DNA of 64,000 nt from Candidatus Berkelbacteria bacterium. Lineage in GTDB: Bacteria > Patescibacteriota > UBA1384 > JACPKC01. Location of the stretch: contig JACPKC010000004.1 of NCBI GenBank assembly GCA_016187225.1, forward strand, positions 17,004-81,003, given 5' to 3'. Shown here in pieces: positions 18,806 through 60,066 of this stretch. The notes beneath the pieces were generated by a model. The model saw nothing but the letters and a program-made list of their open reading frames with translations, was not told the origin of the DNA and ran no database searches. Made by a program: the position numbers and the translations under genes. The first letter of the stretch is position 1. Each line of letters starts with the position of its first letter.

Positions 18806-18967
18806 CTATTTGTGTTTTTCCACGAGACCGATAATCAAGCCCAAGAGGCCGATTACAAAATAGAGCCAAGCGTACATTATGCCCTCCACAGTGTAATTTC
18901 CGAAGAGGAGAATCCCAATCACAAAAAGCAGTAAACCAATCAAAACGGCGTACCACTGTGAAAACAT
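18806..18967 (-). CDS. small (53 aa) two-TM membrane protein, not in the ORF track
   Basis: ATG preceded by AAGGAGG. It translates to MFSQWYAVLIGLLLFVIGILLFGNYTVEGIMYAWLYFVIGLLGLIIGLVEKHK. Its stop abuts the LOG gene start. Confidence 0.45.
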   Translation of the reverse strand: MFSQWYAVLIGLLLFVIGILLFGNYTVEGIMYAWLYFVIGLLGLIIGLVEKHK

Positions 18968-19070: not shown

Positions 19071-20045
19071 CTAACTTATAAAGATGCGAACATAGGCGGC
19101 GGCTGGCGCTTGCAAAGAATATCTGGGGAGAGAGGCAGGGATTAGAACAAAGGAGAGCGGGGCAAGTTCTAGAACGCCTGACTTGCTTTTTAGTTTAATT
19201 TTTTGAGTTAGCGACATAAGAATCTCAAAACTGTCCCTGGGATGATGTTGACGTTCGCCCTCCAGGCGCCAGCGTTCAAGCGTGAAGTAAGGGCAATCAA
19301 CCAGAATTTCTTGATTTTCATTTTTTAACGGTGCCTGGAGCTGGGGTTCGGTGTCGCTAAAATCAATTGATCGGAGCGCCTGCCTGACATGGAGCTCGCG
19401 CGGTTTATGTGTGCGTGGATCAAGGCGATTCCAATCGAAAACGCGGTAGGTGGTGTTGGAGTTTTGCTGAACTTCTAGAAGGAGACAGCCTGCGTCGATG
19501 ACGTGCAAGCGGCCGGATGGTAAAAACATACAATCGCCTGGCTTGACGGCCAGATGATGGAGTAAAGGCTCGAGCGTGCCTTGTTTAAGCGCGGTTTCAA
19601 ATTGAGATTGAGTCACGTTTTTCTTGAGACCGGCAAGAATGTGAGCATTTGAATTTGTCCCATCAAGCATCAGCCAACATTCAGTTTTTGGCTCGCTGGC
19701 TCCATCCGCTGTTGATTCTTCAGGCGGGTGAACTTGAAGCGAGAGCCGTGCCTCGGCGTCAAGGAGTTTAATCAGCAATGGGAATTTGCCATTCACCGGA
19801 GCGACCTTGCCCAAGAGCGCTTCGCCATACTCTTCCATAAGCTCGTGAAGATTTTTTCCGGCGAGTGGACCGCTTGCAACAATGCTGACTCGGTCATCTT
19901 CGGGTCGGTCGCTAACTTCCCAAACCTCGGCCAATGGCTGACCGCTTGCGTGAGGCTTGCCGAAAGCACGAAGTTTTTGCCCACCCCAGAGGTAGGCTTG
20001 CGTCATATTCTCGAGTCGAAAAGTGAGGGGATAAAGTGATCGCAT
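19071..20045 (-). CDS. manA: mannose-6-phosphate isomerase, type I
   Basis: YLWGG N-terminus, QVHP, and HVIDAGCLLLEVQQNSNTTYRVFDW cupin motifs. Length about 320 aa. Confidence 0.8.
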   Translation of the reverse strand: MRSLYPLTFRLENMTQAYLWGGQKLRAFGKPHASGQPLAEVWEVSDRPEDDRVSIVASGPLAGKNLHELMEEYGEALLGKVAPVNGKFPLLIKLLDAEARLSLQVHPPEESTADGASEPKTECWLMLDGTNSNAHILAGLKKNVTQSQFETALKQGTLEPLLHHLAVKPGDCMFLPSGRLHVIDAGCLLLEVQQNSNTTYRVFDWNRLDPRTHKPRELHVRQALRSIDFSDTEPQLQAPLKNENQEILVDCPYFTLERWRLEGERQHHPRDSFEILMSLTQKIKLKSKSGVLELAPLSFVLIPASLPRYSLQAPAAAYVRIFIS

Positions 20046-20065
20046 CTTTCAATAATTATAGCAAG

Positions 20066-20109
20066 AAAAAGGACCAGACTACCGAGGGGGAATTATTGTA
20101 GCCTGGTCC
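20066..20109 (-). terminator. intrinsic terminator-like hairpin oriented on the minus strand, 20 nt upstream of the manA ATG
   Basis: On the minus strand a 10-bp stem (GGACCAGGCU/AGUCUGGUCC) is followed by UUUUU. Confidence 0.5.
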
Positions 20110-20340
20110 TGTGAGAAACTTTAGTTCTTGGAGCCGTTGGCCAGCTCCCGAACTATTTCCTCGAACCCTTTCGGCATGCGCAGAAAGGGTTCGAGGTGGA
20201 TGAGTTTACTGCCGCGTGTGCCAACGCGACAGTCGCGGCTCCTTTCGGGCGCGCCGGATACGATCGTCGCGGCGCTTGCCCCACCCGAAGCCGGGTCCGT
20301 TCGTGGGGACCTCTTTCCCAGAGGAGTTTCCACAAAAAAA
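20110..20340 (-). other. GC-rich, palindrome-dense structured element containing an RBS-led 77-aa ORF (20121..20354, minus)
   Basis: Roughly 65% GC against a roughly 50% background. All six frames are open. It holds a 14-bp perfect inverted repeat (20159-20196) and the palindrome CGCGACAGTCGCG. AAGGAGGAG lies 5 nt upstream of the minus-strand ATG. Confidence 0.4.
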
Positions 20341-20625
20341 TGAGAAAAATTCATTTATCTCCTCCTTGGAAAGTTCCGCCACGGTATGAAGACGAACCTG
20401 ATCGAGAGTTTCGTGTTGTTTCCTCTCGATCTGGTTCGACACAACCTTCTTTCTGATCAAGATTTTTCCTCCCTTTTATCTAAATTGAGAACGGCGGACC
20501 GTTCCCACGAACACGAATACTACACACTTTTTCCACAGTGGCAAGTCTCAAGCTATGTTAAACTGACATTTGTGCCTAAATGGGTGCAAACTTTTATCAA
20601 TATAAGCTTTCATAGAGGAGGGGGA

Positions 20626-23600
20626 ATGTTCAAACGTTTCTGGAGTGTACTGGCGCCGATCACACTGGTCGTGGCCATTGCGGTCCTCACTGTTGGTCCA
20701 AATAACGTGACGACGTTATTTGAGATCGACACCGCCAGAGCCGGCGATATCACAAGTCCAACGTGGACTCTTTCAGATACTACAGCGTCCGCCACGAATG
20801 TGACGTATACCCATACGTTCACGACCGAAACCGCGATCCCAATCAATACCGGTGGAGCTGAAATTTGGCTCAGCGTCCAGCCCGGAATGGAGCCGCCGCA
20901 ATTCACAAGTAGCACACTTGCAAGTGGTAGCACAGAGGGGTTTGCGGGGCAGGAAATCAATTTTTGGTCCGAGGGCAAGGGCGGGATGAGTATTTCGATT
21001 CACAATAAAGGGACAACGGCAATTCCGGCTGGTGAGATCACGCTTAAATTTAGCGGTGTCACTAACCCAAGTCGTGGCGGTGCGTTGCGAACTAATACTT
21101 ATACAAAAGATTCCTTTACTCCGCTCGACGGTCGCCAAGGGCCAGACAGTAATGGCGTGATCGCGATCGGTACGCAAAATGTCCAGGGAACGGTAACTGA
21201 AGCTTCGACCAGCGCTCCCGTCGCCAATTTCCCGCTTGAAATTCACGGTGAAAACGGGTTTTGGCAAGCAACAACTGCCACGAACGGCACTTATGGCTTT
21301 TATGGTGTGCCAGCTGGCAATTACATGCTTGAAATGAGTTACGCAATGGATCCAAATAGCAGTAACGCCTCCTCGATCTCGCAATATCTGCGTTTTGAGC
21401 AAATTCAAGTCACTGTCCCAGCCTCCGGCACAGTGACACAAAATATCTCTCTCCAAAAATCAAGCAAAGTCATTACTGGCGTTGTGAAATATTCAGATAC
21501 TGGCGCCGTGGTGGCCAATGCCAACGTCAATGCTTTTTCAAATGGCCCAGGCGGCTTTGCTTCTAGCCCAACAAACTCAAGTGGTGAATTTACCTTGCGA
21601 GTTGGCGGCGGCAACTACTATATTAATGTCATGCCGAACTTTTTCGGCGGTCCGGGCGGTCCAGGTAATCAATCACAAACGGGAAATGATTTTTTCCCAC
21701 GCGCGCCGCGCCAGGTCAGTTTTGTCCAGGCCGCATCAGTTGCTGAAACAATTGCAATGGGTGACGTTCTCGTCGATCGAGCCGATGCAACGGTAACCGG
21801 CAAACTTGAAAAACCGAATGGTAGCGGGGTTAATATGGGCGGCATGGGCGCAATGAATTTCCGCACTCACACTATGATCCCAATCATGGTCCAGCAAGAC
21901 GGCAATTTTTCATTTAAGGCCAAATCTGGCACCGGCACATGGGAGTTAAATTACTTTGATCCAGGCGCATCGGTTGCTATGCCACCAGATACACAGTTTA
22001 AGATCGATCCAGGCGCAAACAATCTCGGCACAATTAAAATGGTTGCGCTCGATAAAACCATTACCGTTAACGCCAAACGGATTGATGGCGGTAAAAACGA
22101 GGGCATTGCCAATATGCCAGTCATGACCTTTCAAATTAAACGACCGGGCCCGCCATTTATGAGCTTTACTGATTCAACTGGAACAGCGCAGATTAAGGTC
22201 CCGGCTGGCTTTGAAGGTCGGGTGATGGGCATTCCGGGTGGCAAAGGTGGCCCTGGCAAACGCGAGGGCGGTGAAGGTGATGGCGAAGAATTCGGTTGGC
22301 TCCAGATGTTTAACATTGCCGCGGCTTACGCCCAAGAAGGCCCGGGTGGTGGCTCCGCAGGTGGTTTTGATCAAGAAACTTCTCGTCTCTTCCCAGTTAC
22401 AGCGCCTCAACGCGCCAAAGCCGGCGATACCGTAACGCTTAACTTCGATCTGGCAGATAAAAGCGTAACGGTGCGGACGGTAGACAAAAATAATAACGCA
22501 GTTTCAGAAGGGGCCTTTGTTAATGCCCGGCCATTGGGCAGTGGTTTTACTGGCAAGGGCGGTGGTTTTGGTGGCTCGACATCCGGTGGAAGCGGCACAA
22601 TCTACACTACTAAAGGCGACTTTACTTTTAACACTTTTTTCCCACCGGATTCTAACTATATGGGAATTGCGAAAACTGTCACGGTCGGCGATAACGGCGC
22701 CACAGCCGATCTTTTAGCGGCAACCAAGACAGTGACAGTCACTGGTGAAGTTCGGGATGCTTCAAATAATAACGCGGTCGTTAAAGACGGTTCGCTCGGC
22801 ATTATGATCGGTCTCTTTGGCGAGAGTGGCTTCAGCGATGGCAAATACAACCCAGCCGATGGCACATATACGGCAAAGTTTGTGCCTGATACGAAATTCA
22901 GGATCGGTGTTGCCGCTGGCGATCCAGGTATGGTGCAAGAGGGTGGCTATATTCCTAACATTAGCCCTGTTGAACTTGAGGGCAATGACGGTGAGACTTT
23001 AACTCAACACGTTACCTTGGCAAAAGTTGATGCCAAGATTAAGGGCACAGTCAAAGATCAAAATGGAACAGCAATTAAAGGCGTTACAATTACCGCTGAT
23101 CCTGGTTTGGCTGAACTGATCGGCGAAGGCCCAGGCGGACCTGGTCCGGGCCCAGAAGAAGAGGGAATCGACTTTGGTTTCTCTGATGTAACCGAAGATG
23201 ATGGTAGCTACGAAATTGATGTGGCGGCGAATAAGTACAGCATGATTGTGAATGCGCGCAAGGAAGGTTTATTTGTCACGCAGAATGTGACCGTTGACAT
23301 TAAGGCGCGTGAGACGAAAGAAAATATTAACCTAAGTCTGCAAAAGGCTGATGCCAAGGCGACTGTTGAGGTCAATAATAAAGACAGTAACGATCTTGGC
23401 GGCGCCGAGGTGCAGATTTTTAATGATGAAGGTACGATTAATTTCTCGTCAACGGCGGGTAGCGATGGCAAAGTGACGATTGATCTGCCGGCCGGGACAT
23501 ACAACATTAAGGCCGGCAAAGATAGCCCAGAAGATAATGGCAAGGTTGAGGGTAGCGCCATTCAAAAAGTGATTATCGATAAAAACGAAACCGAAAGCAT

Positions 23601-32458: not shown

Positions 32459-32533
32459 TGGCTCCGGGGGTAGGATTCGAACCTACGATTTCCACGTCCA
32501 GAGCGTGGCGTCCTGCCGCTAGACGACCCCGGA
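32459..32533 (-). tRNA. tRNA-Gln (anticodon CUG)
   Basis: A 75-nt cloverleaf with a TTCGAAT T-loop, the anticodon loop CUCUGGA, and an encoded CCA. Confidence 0.85.
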
Positions 32534-58078: not shown

Positions 58079-58378
58079 TTAGGCGGAGCGCAAGTTGGCT
58101 CGCAGGGCGATCATCGAGGTTTTTAGCCTTTCGATGTTTTCGCCCCGCCTACCTGGCCTTTGATTGAGAAGTTCGATCGAAATCTCGAGCATCCCAAGCA
58201 ATTTGGCGCGTTGCAGTCTTGCAAGCTCGCGCCGGATGCGAAAGAAAGCCTTGAGCTTGCCTTCCACATCCTTGACGACTGCGCCGATTTTATCATGGGC
58301 GCAGATATCGGGTTCGCTCAACTCCCAACACTTTGTGTGAATGGAGTCGATGAGATTGCGAAAATCTTCATCGCTCAC
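58079..58378 (-). CDS. hypothetical small helical protein (99 aa)
   Basis: GTG start 8 nt after a GAAGGAAGG ribosome-binding site. It is coupled 3 nt after the stop of the upstream ORF. Confidence 0.4.
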   Translation of the reverse strand: MSDEDFRNLIDSIHTKCWELSEPDICAHDKIGAVVKDVEGKLKAFFRIRRELARLQRAKLLGMLEISIELLNQRPGRRGENIERLKTSMIALRANLRSA

Positions 58379-58381
58379 TTT

Positions 58382-58720
58382 TTACCGCCTTCCTTCGCAT
58401 AGTCCGCCTTGGTTGAGGTAGGCGTAGAGAAGATCGAGCTCGCGGAGCAGAGCGCGATTTTGCTCGCGGTAGCTTGACTGATCGAGCGCCTCGAGCGCCT
58501 CGGTGATGTGTGTTCGAATGACCTTTTCTCGATCACTGCCATGTGGCGCGTCGACCGAAAGTAGCAATAACTCATTTATTGCATTTCTCATCTCGTACTC
58601 GCCCGCGCCTTGCCCGGTTATTATCCGGTTGATCATGGCGTGGAAGGAGGCGAATACGAGTTCGCGCTTCCGTTCCTTTGCGAGACTTAGGTCAGAACGC
58701 CTCTTATTAGATTCCTCCAT
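58382..58720 (-). CDS. hypothetical small protein (112 aa)
   Basis: ATG with an AAGGGGA ribosome-binding site. It contains an R-x6-H element (REKVIRTH), which I read only weakly as HEPN-like. Confidence 0.4.
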   Translation of the reverse strand: MEESNKRRSDLSLAKERKRELVFASFHAMINRIITGQGAGEYEMRNAINELLLLSVDAPHGSDREKVIRTHITEALEALDQSSYREQNRALLRELDLLYAYLNQGGLCEGRR

Positions 58721-59106
58721 TTTTCCATCATCCCCTTCTTTTTCGGTCTCGGTTTTTTCTCGTTATGTTGTTGATAGAACTCTCCAAGCGCCTCAAAAAG
58801 CGCTCGGAAAGTCCACTGCGAACAGCGGCCGATCGGACTCCGCACCTTCCCGATCCAACGGCGCAGAGCTGGTAACTCTTGTTCTTCGGCGCGCTCGAAG
58901 AGTAACATCACCGCGCCCTCGATCCGACCGGCTTGATAAGCGCTCTCCCGGATCGAACCCGGCTCGCGGATGAGCGTTTCCATCAGCCGTTCAATTTTAT
59001 CTTGGCATTCTTTGGACGTATGAATTGTAAAAACCTCCTCTTCTTTACTCAACTCAATATAGGCCGAGCAATCAGGCAGAGTAGTCCAAACTTCCGCACG
59101 GGTCAA
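58687..59106 (-). CDS. hypothetical protein (139 aa as tracked; the start is uncertain)
   Basis: Only a TTG start is available at 59106 and there is no clear ribosome-binding site. An internal ATG sits at residue 42. It lies 38 nt downstream of xerC. Confidence 0.25.
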   Translation of the reverse strand: MTRAEVWTTLPDCSAYIELSKEEEVFTIHTSKECQDKIERLMETLIREPGSIRESAYQAGRIEGAVMLLFERAEEQELPALRRWIGKVRSPIGRCSQWTFRALFEALGEFYQQHNEKKPRPKKKGMMEKWRNLIRGVLT

Positions 59107-59143: not shown

Positions 59144-60034
59144 TTACTTACTGTTTATCCTTTTCCGACCATGGAAAGCTTTGTGGACCTCGTGGAGATG
59201 CTGATCGGTGAGATGAGTGTACCGCTGAGTTGTGGCCACCGAGGAATGACCCAGTAGCGCCTGGACTGATCTCAAATCAGCCCCGGATCGGAGTAAATCT
59301 GTTCCGAAAGAATGGCGCAATGTATGCGGAGTAACGTGTTCAGCCAAACCGGCTTGGGCCGCGTAGCCTTGAATTAAACGCTGGATAGTTCTTGGAGTGA
59401 GTCGCCCCCCGCTTTCTCCGTTCCGCTTGATCCTTACAAAAAGCGCCGGATCATCATCTGTTCGCGCGGCGACATATGTTTTAATGGCGCTTTGAGCGCC
59501 AGGAGAGAGAAAGACGACTCGGCGTTTTCTGCCCTTCCCCACCACACTCACCTCTTCCCTATTTTCCACTTCTTGGCGGTCGAGCCGCACGAGTTCGGCC
59601 ACACGCAAACCGGTTGAAAAGAGCGTCTCCAGAATCGCTTGGTCTCTCTTTCCTTTTTGGACGCGAAGATTAGGCGCGGCTAAGAGTTTGGCGAGATGCT
59701 CTCTGTCCAAAAAATTTACTTCAATCGTTTCGGCGCCCGGTAGGTCAATTCTTTCGCTTGAAAGAGTTCGGATATTTTGTTTTGCCAGCCAACCCAAGAG
59801 CGCTCTTAGGGCAACGAGGTGGTAATTCTGTGTCGCGCGACTCAATTCACGTTCGTTTAATTTTAGCCGATAGGTTCGAACATGCTCGTCGGTGAGTGCG
59901 CCGACATTTATGTTATGTGTGAAGTCTAGAAAACGGCCTAAATAGTGCTCATAGTTTTCAATTGTTCGCGGTGCTAGGCCTTGTGCGAGTTCGCAATCTT
60001 CTAAAAAACGTCGAATTGCTTGAGAAAGTTGCAT
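59144..60034 (-). CDS. xerC: tyrosine recombinase XerC/XerD
   Basis: Active-site R..HTLRHSFGTDLLRSGADLRSVQALLGH..Y. Start taken at MQLSQAIRRFLE; the track ORF starts 30 nt further upstream. Confidence 0.85.
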   Translation of the reverse strand: MQLSQAIRRFLEDCELAQGLAPRTIENYEHYLGRFLDFTHNINVGALTDEHVRTYRLKLNERELSRATQNYHLVALRALLGWLAKQNIRTLSSERIDLPGAETIEVNFLDREHLAKLLAAPNLRVQKGKRDQAILETLFSTGLRVAELVRLDRQEVENREEVSVVGKGRKRRVVFLSPGAQSAIKTYVAARTDDDPALFVRIKRNGESGGRLTPRTIQRLIQGYAAQAGLAEHVTPHTLRHSFGTDLLRSGADLRSVQALLGHSSVATTQRYTHLTDQHLHEVHKAFHGRKRINSK

Positions 60035-60066
60035 CGCGGGTATTATAGCATGTACCATACTCATAT

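Follow-up and report, generated by a model that had tools for sequence, protein, structure and literature searches.

The 64,000-nt stretch of DNA analyzed here (the window), which comes from a Candidatus Berkelbacteria bacterium (contig JACPKC010000004.1, positions 17,004 to 81,003), carries a GC-rich, palindrome-dense element in the 580-nt gap between the mannose-6-phosphate isomerase gene manA and the gene for a surface protein. The manA gene (19071-20045, minus strand) codes for a 324-aa protein that is 100% identical to NCBI MBI2589576.1, with the same start in the NCBI record, and shares its strand with a LOG-family gene and a thioredoxin-like gene. On the plus strand, the gap is followed by the gene for the surface protein, which is 1305 aa long and has a signal peptide (start at 20626), and by a sortase gene. 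The element is real and exceptional within the window, and the safest conclusion is that it belongs to an independent minus-strand unit ending at its own terminator (Table 1).

An earlier note on this DNA, made by reading the letters, had described the element as about 65% GC over 20110-20340 and open in all six frames throughout. The measured GC fraction of that interval is 0.59, rising to 0.62 over 20121-20327 and 0.67 over 20162-20311; the peak of 0.73 at 20209-20308 is the 100-nt maximum of the whole window, whose mean is 0.487 and whose remaining GC peaks fall within ordinary open reading frames (ORFs). All six frames are free of stops over about 20209-20340 only, a degree of openness that occurs in 0.3% of mononucleotide shuffles of a 120-nt piece (20216-20335). 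The perfect 14-bp inverted repeat, the perfect palindrome, the nested GC hairpins with a GCUU loop and the 77-aa Arg/Gly/Pro/Ser-rich ORF that begins at ATG 20354 are all present as that note had described them. Two of its readings need adjustment in detail. The terminator and its U5 run (20070-20066, 17-20 nt ahead of the manA ATG at 20045) are there, with a stem of 12-13 bp and not of 10 bp; the Shine-Dalgarno sequence (SD) of the 77-aa ORF is likewise there, with a gap to its ATG of 4 nt when counted from AAGGAGGAG and of 6 nt when counted from GGAGG, and not of 5 nt.

Table 1. Features of the element and its surroundings (positions in the window unless a locus is named)
Feature	Position	Strand	Details and basis
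Promoter-like site TTGCCA-N16-TAGTAT	20517..20544	minus	Predicted transcript start near 20510; consensus scan
5' leader hairpin GAACGG-UCCG-CCGUUC	20489..20504	minus	Sequence and fold of 20046-20530
SD GGGAGG (20471-20466), TTG start (20460) and 84-aa ORF	20206..20471	minus	GGGAGG-N5-TTG; ORF list
16-bp hairpin CGAACCAGAUCGAGAG / CUCUCGAUCAGGUUCG	20393..20438	minus	14-nt loop; inverted repeat and folds
SD AAGGAGGAG (20367-20359), ATG (20354) and 77-aa Arg/Gly/Ser/Pro-rich ORF (20354-20121)	20121..20367	minus	ORF list
T7 run	20334..20340	minus	Between two overlapping ORFs; read in sequence
GC-rich core, predicted closed RNA domain	20108..20336	minus	Closing helix UUUGUGGAAACU (20336-20325) / AGUUUCUCACAGG (20120-20108); fold
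Palindrome CGCGAC-A-GTCGCG	20225..20237		6-bp arms around a single central base
Perfect 14-bp inverted repeat CCTCGAACCCTTTC-N10-GAAAGGGTTCGAGG	20159..20196	minus	10-nt loop; extends to 17-nt arms at 94% complementarity (17 bp, one mismatch)
Nested hairpin CCCCA..CCCG-GCUU-CGGG-UGGGG		minus	Read in sequence
Intrinsic terminator	20063..20110	minus	12-13-bp stem (20070-20082 / 20098-20110) with one G-U pair, 15-nt loop AAUAAUUCCCCCUCG, then UUUUUCUU; sequence and folds
manA promoter TGcTATAAT (20063-20055) and ATG (20045-20043)	20043..20063	minus	Eight-locus alignment
Ribosome-binding site and start of the divergent 1305-aa surface-protein gene (CUUUCAUAGAGGAGGGGGAAUG)	20607..20628	plus	Possible antisense target of the terminator loop; repeat analysis
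Small-protein genes of related loci	L008:178-417, L009:3700-3933, L011:695-1012, L012:128-379		Between tRNA-Gln and manA

The most conspicuous property of the element is its predicted folding. Relative to dinucleotide shuffles, the minus strand folds with z scores of -7.4 (20046-20385), -8.9 (20046-20530) and -10.8 (20062-20460), while the manA coding controls range from +0.8 to -2.1. A regression of folding energy on GC content over all 638 overlapping 300-nt windows puts the minus strand of the element in first place, and each of the three highest-ranking windows overlaps it. The GC-rich core (20106-20341) reaches -119.6 kcal/mol (z -7.8), a stability equaled by 0 of 200 shuffles; in isolation it is predicted to form the closing helix around six hairpins, and the hairpin with the 14-bp stem and the one next to it jointly contribute -44.6 kcal/mol. 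For the 5' leader hairpin, an alternative long-range pairing is offered by 20501-20512, which overlaps this hairpin and is complementary to 20299-20310 (12 nt, 92%). In the minimum-energy fold of 20046-20385, the SD of the 77-aa ORF (GGAGGAG) is paired with CUCCUC (20326-20321), and its ATG is enclosed. The minus strand folds better than the plus strand by about 20 kcal/mol (-155.9 versus -136.3 kcal/mol), and several of its stems contain G-U pairs, which on the other strand would become A-C mismatches. The unit combines a terminator of its own (20110-20063) with beyond-chance folding on the strand predicted to be transcribed, as would be expected of a structured small RNA (sRNA).

As the element shares the strand of manA and immediately precedes it, is highly structured, and has a terminator ending 17-20 nt before the ATG, it could be read as a cis-regulatory leader (a riboswitch or attenuator) with the terminator as expression platform, an option that the earlier note had entertained. 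This is very improbable in light of the promoter of manA itself. In an alignment of the manA upstream regions of the window and of seven related loci (L001, L008, L009, L010, L011, L012, and L014), seven of the eight, namely, the window, L001, L008, L009, L010, L012, and L014, have an extended -10 box (TGnTAYAMT) located 6-9 nt ahead of the ATG. In the six related loci it stands 6 nt ahead of the ATG, in the variants TTGCTACACT, TGGTACACT, and TTGCTATACT; in the window it reads TGcTATAAT (TTGCTATAAT) and stands 9 nt ahead. The box abuts the U-tract of the upstream terminator, and terminators occupy the same position in L008, L009, L012, L001, and L010. Because its own -10 box leaves no room for an SD, manA appears from these alignments to be effectively leaderless and to use its own extended -10 promoter across the clade. 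A promoter between the terminator and the manA ATG also means that the upstream terminator ends a different transcript. The box is kept in six related loci that lack the element, the manA upstream regions of L001 and L008-L014 show no similarity to it, and in relatives the place ahead of manA is taken by a protein gene. By these sequence comparisons, the element is not a manA leader, and it should not be annotated as a manA riboswitch.

Searches against known RNAs agree with this view. At gathering thresholds, Rfam matches in the whole window are limited to five tRNAs. Even at E <= 10, positions 19950-20650 yield only four chance-level matches (13-19 bits versus gathering scores of 41-75), among which there is no manA motif, riboswitch, RNase P, SRP, 6S, or tmRNA, and ARAGORN finds no tmRNA. 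The absence of an Rfam match is thereby confirmed, in line with the earlier note, which could not match the element to RNase P, SRP, tmRNA, 6S, the glmS ribozyme, or any common riboswitch.

The comparison with related Patescibacteria gives the locus its evolutionary context. The protein collections searched comprise 5.8 billion clusters and 1.84 billion representatives (about 15 billion proteins overall); among the clusters, the next-nearest manA proteins are only 52-59% identical to that of the window, which points to a very thinly sampled lineage, and the relatives that encode them are without the element. In four of these loci (L008, L009, L011, and L012), the order is the same: an opposite-strand tRNA-Gln(CTG), a sigma-70-like promoter (TTGACG-N17-CATACT), a leader hairpin, an SD, a GTG or TTG start, an ORF, a terminator, and the manA -10 box. 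The ORF in this slot is about 80 aa long (105 aa in L011), with a family range of 77-105 aa. These four ORFs constitute a real protein family, with conserved A-x-P-L-F and I-x-Y-A-x-P blocks joined by a Pro/Gly-rich linker of variable length. The codons for the conserved P-L-F vary synonymously at third positions, which points to protein-level selection on the family; it has no match in Pfam, NCBIfam, or PHROGs. These small-gene units are themselves strongly folded, with z scores of -7 in L008, -4.5 in L012, -3.8 in L009, and -2.5 in L011, and values of -7 to -8 are reached by the different unit found in L001 and of -6 to -7 by that of L010. Hairpin density is therefore a property of the slot in this clade, and strong folding by itself is no argument against coding. 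A hairpin over the P-L-F codons was considered as a shared element and dropped, given that each sequence has one but RNAalifold finds no consensus structure.

The unit in the window shares with the small-protein gene of its relatives the slot, the strand, the layout (a promoter-like site, a leader hairpin, an SD, a non-ATG start, and a terminator abutting the manA -10 box), and a hairpin-rich transcript, yet no sequence homology is detectable between the two in any frame. It is about 100-140 nt longer than the small-gene units of the relatives and has a GC-rich core without coding signal. An hmmsearch of its six frames against the relatives' family gave E > 1, and hhalign assigned its ORFs a probability below 0.1. 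In shuffle-calibrated Smith-Waterman comparisons with the relatives, a single marginal match was obtained in 20 tests, between the 84-aa frame and L012 (p = 0.002). The surroundings have also changed. In the four relatives, tRNA-Gln lies directly upstream of the small gene and manA; the tRNA-Gln(CTG) of the window lies 12 kb away (32459-32533, minus strand), in the opposite relative orientation and with a surface-protein/sortase cluster in between. This displacement implies that the locus was rearranged, with a breakpoint beside the element.

A separate observation concerns the surroundings of tRNA-Gln in two of the related loci. In L011 (270-465) and L010 (2935-3130), a GC-rich stretch of about 200 nt separates the tRNA-Gln gene from a partial duplicate of that gene's 3' end (CGGGACTWGGA); in L011 its GC fraction is 0.69 in a locus of about 0.47, and Rfam has no match for the stretch. 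It looks like the remnant of an attachment (att) site or a small integrated element. Kinship of this stretch with the element of the window was considered and rejected, as the two have only a short motif match in common, which is compatible with chance.

The order SD, start, open frame, and stop occurs twice in the minus-strand unit, as AAGGAGG-N6-ATG with 77 codons and as GGGAGG-N5-TTG with 84 codons. In a codon model trained on 33 long ORFs of the window, the 77-aa ORF scores 0.028 per codon, lower than 99.4% of real-gene windows, and the core shows no 3-base GC periodicity (p = 0.39), both values coming from a short, GC-atypical sample of limited power. No reading frame stands out by codon score within the core as a whole, where the 77-aa frame is the best of the three over 20230-20185 (0.15-0.19). 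The TTG frame is gene-like over its first 25-30 codons only (about 20440-20380), scoring 0.21-0.46 (real genes: 0.27 +/- 0.10), and beyond them its score falls to about 0. A word-index search of the clusters with the 77-aa ORF returned its own entry only; phmmer against the representatives added two matches of compositional appearance, of which one is to a 4984-aa protein and the other is broken up into six stretches. The 84-aa ORF has no homolog in the protein search, and neither ORF belongs to a Pfam, NCBIfam, or PHROGs family. AlphaFold2 (AF2) gives the 77-aa ORF a mean predicted local distance difference test (pLDDT) score of 44.9 and no confident fold. Records of the 77-aa sequence come solely from Logan gene calls, with none from NCBI; as manA of the same genome is present in NCBI, this suggests that the NCBI annotation pipeline (PGAP) did not call the ORF. 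The 77-aa ORF is accordingly to be treated as doubtful.

These results favor a structured RNA domain, specific to this lineage and carried on a remodelled small-gene transcript, a reading to which we assign a probability of roughly 0.5; it is favored because the core lacks every testable coding signature and has a coherent closed fold. The unit would run for about 450 nt from the sigma-70-like promoter (20544-20517) to the intrinsic terminator (20110-20063) and would fill the slot, shortly ahead of a manA with a promoter of its own, in which relatives have the hairpin-rich gene for a conserved protein of about 80 aa. Only its 5' part would still be gene-like, comprising the promoter, the leader hairpin, the SD, the TTG start, and about 30 codons. 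The 3' two-thirds (20108-20336) would constitute the structured domain, its closing helix drawn around the six hairpins. Functionally, this part may act as a non-coding RNA, or it may form a long, structured 3' region in the remodelled transcript, and the terminator would halt that transcript just before the manA promoter, so that manA would be expressed alone. The independent structured sRNA proposed in the earlier note is compatible with the terminator, the promoter-like site, the extreme folding, and the strand-specific G-U pairs, and it keeps the standing of a prediction.

Several observations weigh against this interpretation. The conserved protein gene of L008 is equally hairpin-rich (z -7). 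The codon model learned from genes of about 49% GC and would give too low a score to a coding stretch that is GC-rich or disordered. The near-perfect, well-spaced SD, the ATG, the 77 codons, and the stop 11 nt before the terminator stem form the arrangement of a real small gene, and the Logan gene caller does call it. By folding energy alone, the preference for the minus strand ranks only 31 of 638; further grounds for the strand assignment are the U-tract, the promoter-like site, and the two pairs of SD and start codon. The promoter is a single consensus match (TTGCCA-N16-TAGTAT) where 0.6 would be expected by chance, which is weak when taken alone, though the layout (-35, -10, leader hairpin, SD, non-ATG start) resembles that of the small-gene promoter regions in L008, L009, L011, and L012. 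Finally, the three available copies of the element do not differ: the Logan contigs L006 and L007 match the window at 100% identity over 20.2 and 11.9 kb, and they offer neither covariation in support of the helices nor a ratio of nonsynonymous to synonymous change (dN/dS).

The same gene-like arrangement lends substance to a different explanation, under which the unit would be a lineage-specific small-protein gene with a highly structured mRNA. Its product would be the 77-aa protein or a frameshift product of about 112 aa that starts at TTG 20460 and passes through the T7 run. Deletion of one T in this run (20334-20340) would fuse the TTG-start frame to the 77-aa frame in a single ORF of 112 aa; the run is a candidate site of frameshift, slippage, or phase variation, and in such a fusion AAGGAGGAG would merely encode Lys-Glu-Glu. 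The change of frame could come about by slippage, phase variation, or a recent frameshift mutation, and the GC-rich part could be an expanded disordered linker, comparable to the Pro/Gly-rich, length-variable linker of the relatives' proteins. The presence in the same slot of a real small-protein gene under protein-level selection, the gene-like start of the TTG frame, the advantage of the 77-aa frame over part of the core, and the weak alignment of the 84-aa frame with L012 are all in keeping with this view. On the other hand, the homology searches returned neither a convincing relative of the 77-aa ORF nor a signal for the relatives' family, the codon score, the missing periodicity, the low pLDDT, and the absence from NCBI protein sources do not fit an ordinary gene, and the two candidate ORFs, which lie in different frames, have 149 nt in common. 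We consider a small-protein gene the main rival reading, possible but less likely. The related suggestion of the earlier note, a small GC-rich gene acquired horizontally, finds weak support in the order of SD, ATG, ORF, and terminator and in the Logan call; against it stand the lack of homologs and of codon periodicity, the poor codon score, and the absence of a match to phage or plasmid DNA.

A further alternative to the structured RNA domain is that the core is foreign or decaying DNA without a dedicated function: either a GC-rich palindromic insertion that destroyed the 3' part of the ancestral gene, akin to a miniature inverted-repeat transposable element (MITE), a repetitive extragenic palindrome (REP), or an att remnant, or the eroded remnant of that gene itself. 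The core is indeed 62-67% GC in a genome of 48.7%, it is bracketed by an imperfect inverted repeat of 10-13 bp, it is missing at every related locus, and the locus has been rearranged. Against this, there is no second copy of the element within the 64-kb window, no target-site duplication is seen at the borders of the inverted repeat, and blastn against phage and plasmid collections leaves the element unmatched. The seven or eight near-perfect stems, the two intact SD-start pairs, and the intact terminator would also be unexpected under neutral decay. On balance, this origin is unlikely. Scans of metagenomes with GAACCCTTTC-N6-14-GAAAGGGTTC, the 10-bp core of the large hairpin, gave more than 120 matches, all of them to unrelated hairpins (palindromes or coding regions) with only the seeded stem in common; the best of these (L032) falls within a coding region for a ferredoxin-like protein in a high-GC organism, and scans of viral sequences for the hairpin pattern gave chance matches only. 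By these searches, the element is an orphan without relatives in the databases covered. It is best described as an orphan structured transcript-like unit, being either an uncharacterized sRNA-like transcript or an orphan small-ORF transcript.

As an observation apart from the element, dozens of unrelated contigs among the metagenome loci (L023-L134) contain nearly the same long palindrome (...GGGTCTGGGGAACCCTTTCTTGCAAGAAAGGGTTCCCCAGACCC...), which is apparently a widespread repeat family unrelated to the element of the window.

The perfect 14-bp arms with their 10-bp spacer might also suggest a protein-binding DNA site in which the inverted repeat serves as an operator. However, the arms are far longer than the usual operator half-sites and stand among seven other hairpins in a unit that looks transcribed, the relatives have no similar repeat at this position, and no regulator gene is adjacent. 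We regard this as the least probable of the explanations considered.

If the core does act as an RNA, its position beside the divergent surface-protein gene raises the question of a target. The terminator loop AUUCCCCCUC (20084-20093) is complementary at 10 of 10 positions to GAGGGGGAAU(G), the SD and start of the surface-protein gene (20618-20627), and, its own antisense excepted, this site is the best duplex partner of the loop on both strands of the 64 kb (-20.2 kcal/mol). A second segment, CUCCUCUGGGAAAG (20313-20326), matches the neighboring ribosome-binding-site sequence (20607-20620) at 12 of 14 positions. Ranking the gene starts by RNAduplex with the full-length RNA is uninformative, with the surface-protein gene at 13 of 33. 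Antisense control of the surface-protein gene by the terminator loop is thus speculative, and the match could reflect chance among SD-like sequences; because any C-rich loop favors such sequences and the full-length ranking is unremarkable, it is offered only as a testable idea. The most elaborate form of the proposal would make the core a new lineage-specific structured regulatory RNA of a Candidate Phyla Radiation (CPR) bacterium, carried on the remodelled small-gene transcript. Base pairing of its C-rich terminator loop and of a second segment, CUCCUC, to the ribosome-binding site of the adjacent sortase-type surface-protein gene would then control translation of that gene. Taken as a whole, this chain of steps is a long shot.

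The element may be compared with several known systems, none of which it reproduces. The manA RNA motif (Rfam RF01745), itself a candidate structured RNA, occurs in front of genes for mannose-6-phosphate isomerase. The element resembles it in being structured and upstream of manA but differs in scoring no Rfam match and in lying outside the manA 5' untranslated region (UTR). Dual-function and 3'-UTR-derived sRNAs such as SgrS/SgrT, RNAIII/hld, and CpxQ combine a short ORF with a structured regulatory RNA in a single transcript that ends at a single terminator. A similar arrangement of ORF and predicted RNA is seen here, without homology to any of these. The sRNAs of the RsaE/RoxS type in Firmicutes act through a C-rich loop by anti-SD pairing. 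The element likewise has a C-rich loop motif (UUCCCCCUC) complementary to the G-rich ribosome-binding site of the adjacent divergent gene; it differs in that this is a single 10-nt match, in that the loop is part of a terminator, and in the lack of an Rfam hit and the rank of 13 of 33 for the full-length duplex. Finally, elements of the REP/BIME (bacterial interspersed mosaic element) or MITE type are GC-rich, palindrome-dense, intergenic, and flanked by a short inverted repeat, traits that the element shares; it differs from them in that a single copy is visible, no target-site duplication is found, and no related copy exists in the searched collections.

Two further regions of the window merit mention in their own right. 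The second most structured stretch in the GC-corrected scan is 58079-59106 on the minus strand, which comprises three consecutive small ORFs (99, 112, and 139 aa) that appear helical by eye. Directly preceding them on that strand is an ORF (59144-60064) that, by eye and from its C-terminal motif, looks like a tyrosine recombinase. Between manA and the LOG-family gene, a 53-aa hydrophobic ORF (18806-18967, minus strand) is probably a real small membrane protein, since gene calls in L013 and L014 place a 55-aa ORF at the corresponding position.

At present, the practical value of these findings is mostly corrective and concerns the annotation of the element, of the 77-aa ORF, and of the leaderless manA. 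That a small-gene slot with unusually strong folding recurs between tRNA-Gln and manA is a comparative finding of modest weight. In a broader form of the long shot above, the slot upstream of the leaderless manA might be one in which this clade maintains fast-evolving, hyper-structured dual-function RNAs. To our knowledge, almost no regulatory RNAs have been described in CPR bacteria. If confirmed by experiment, a structured sRNA or a dual-function small-gene transcript beside a surface-protein gene would provide a useful first example from this group.

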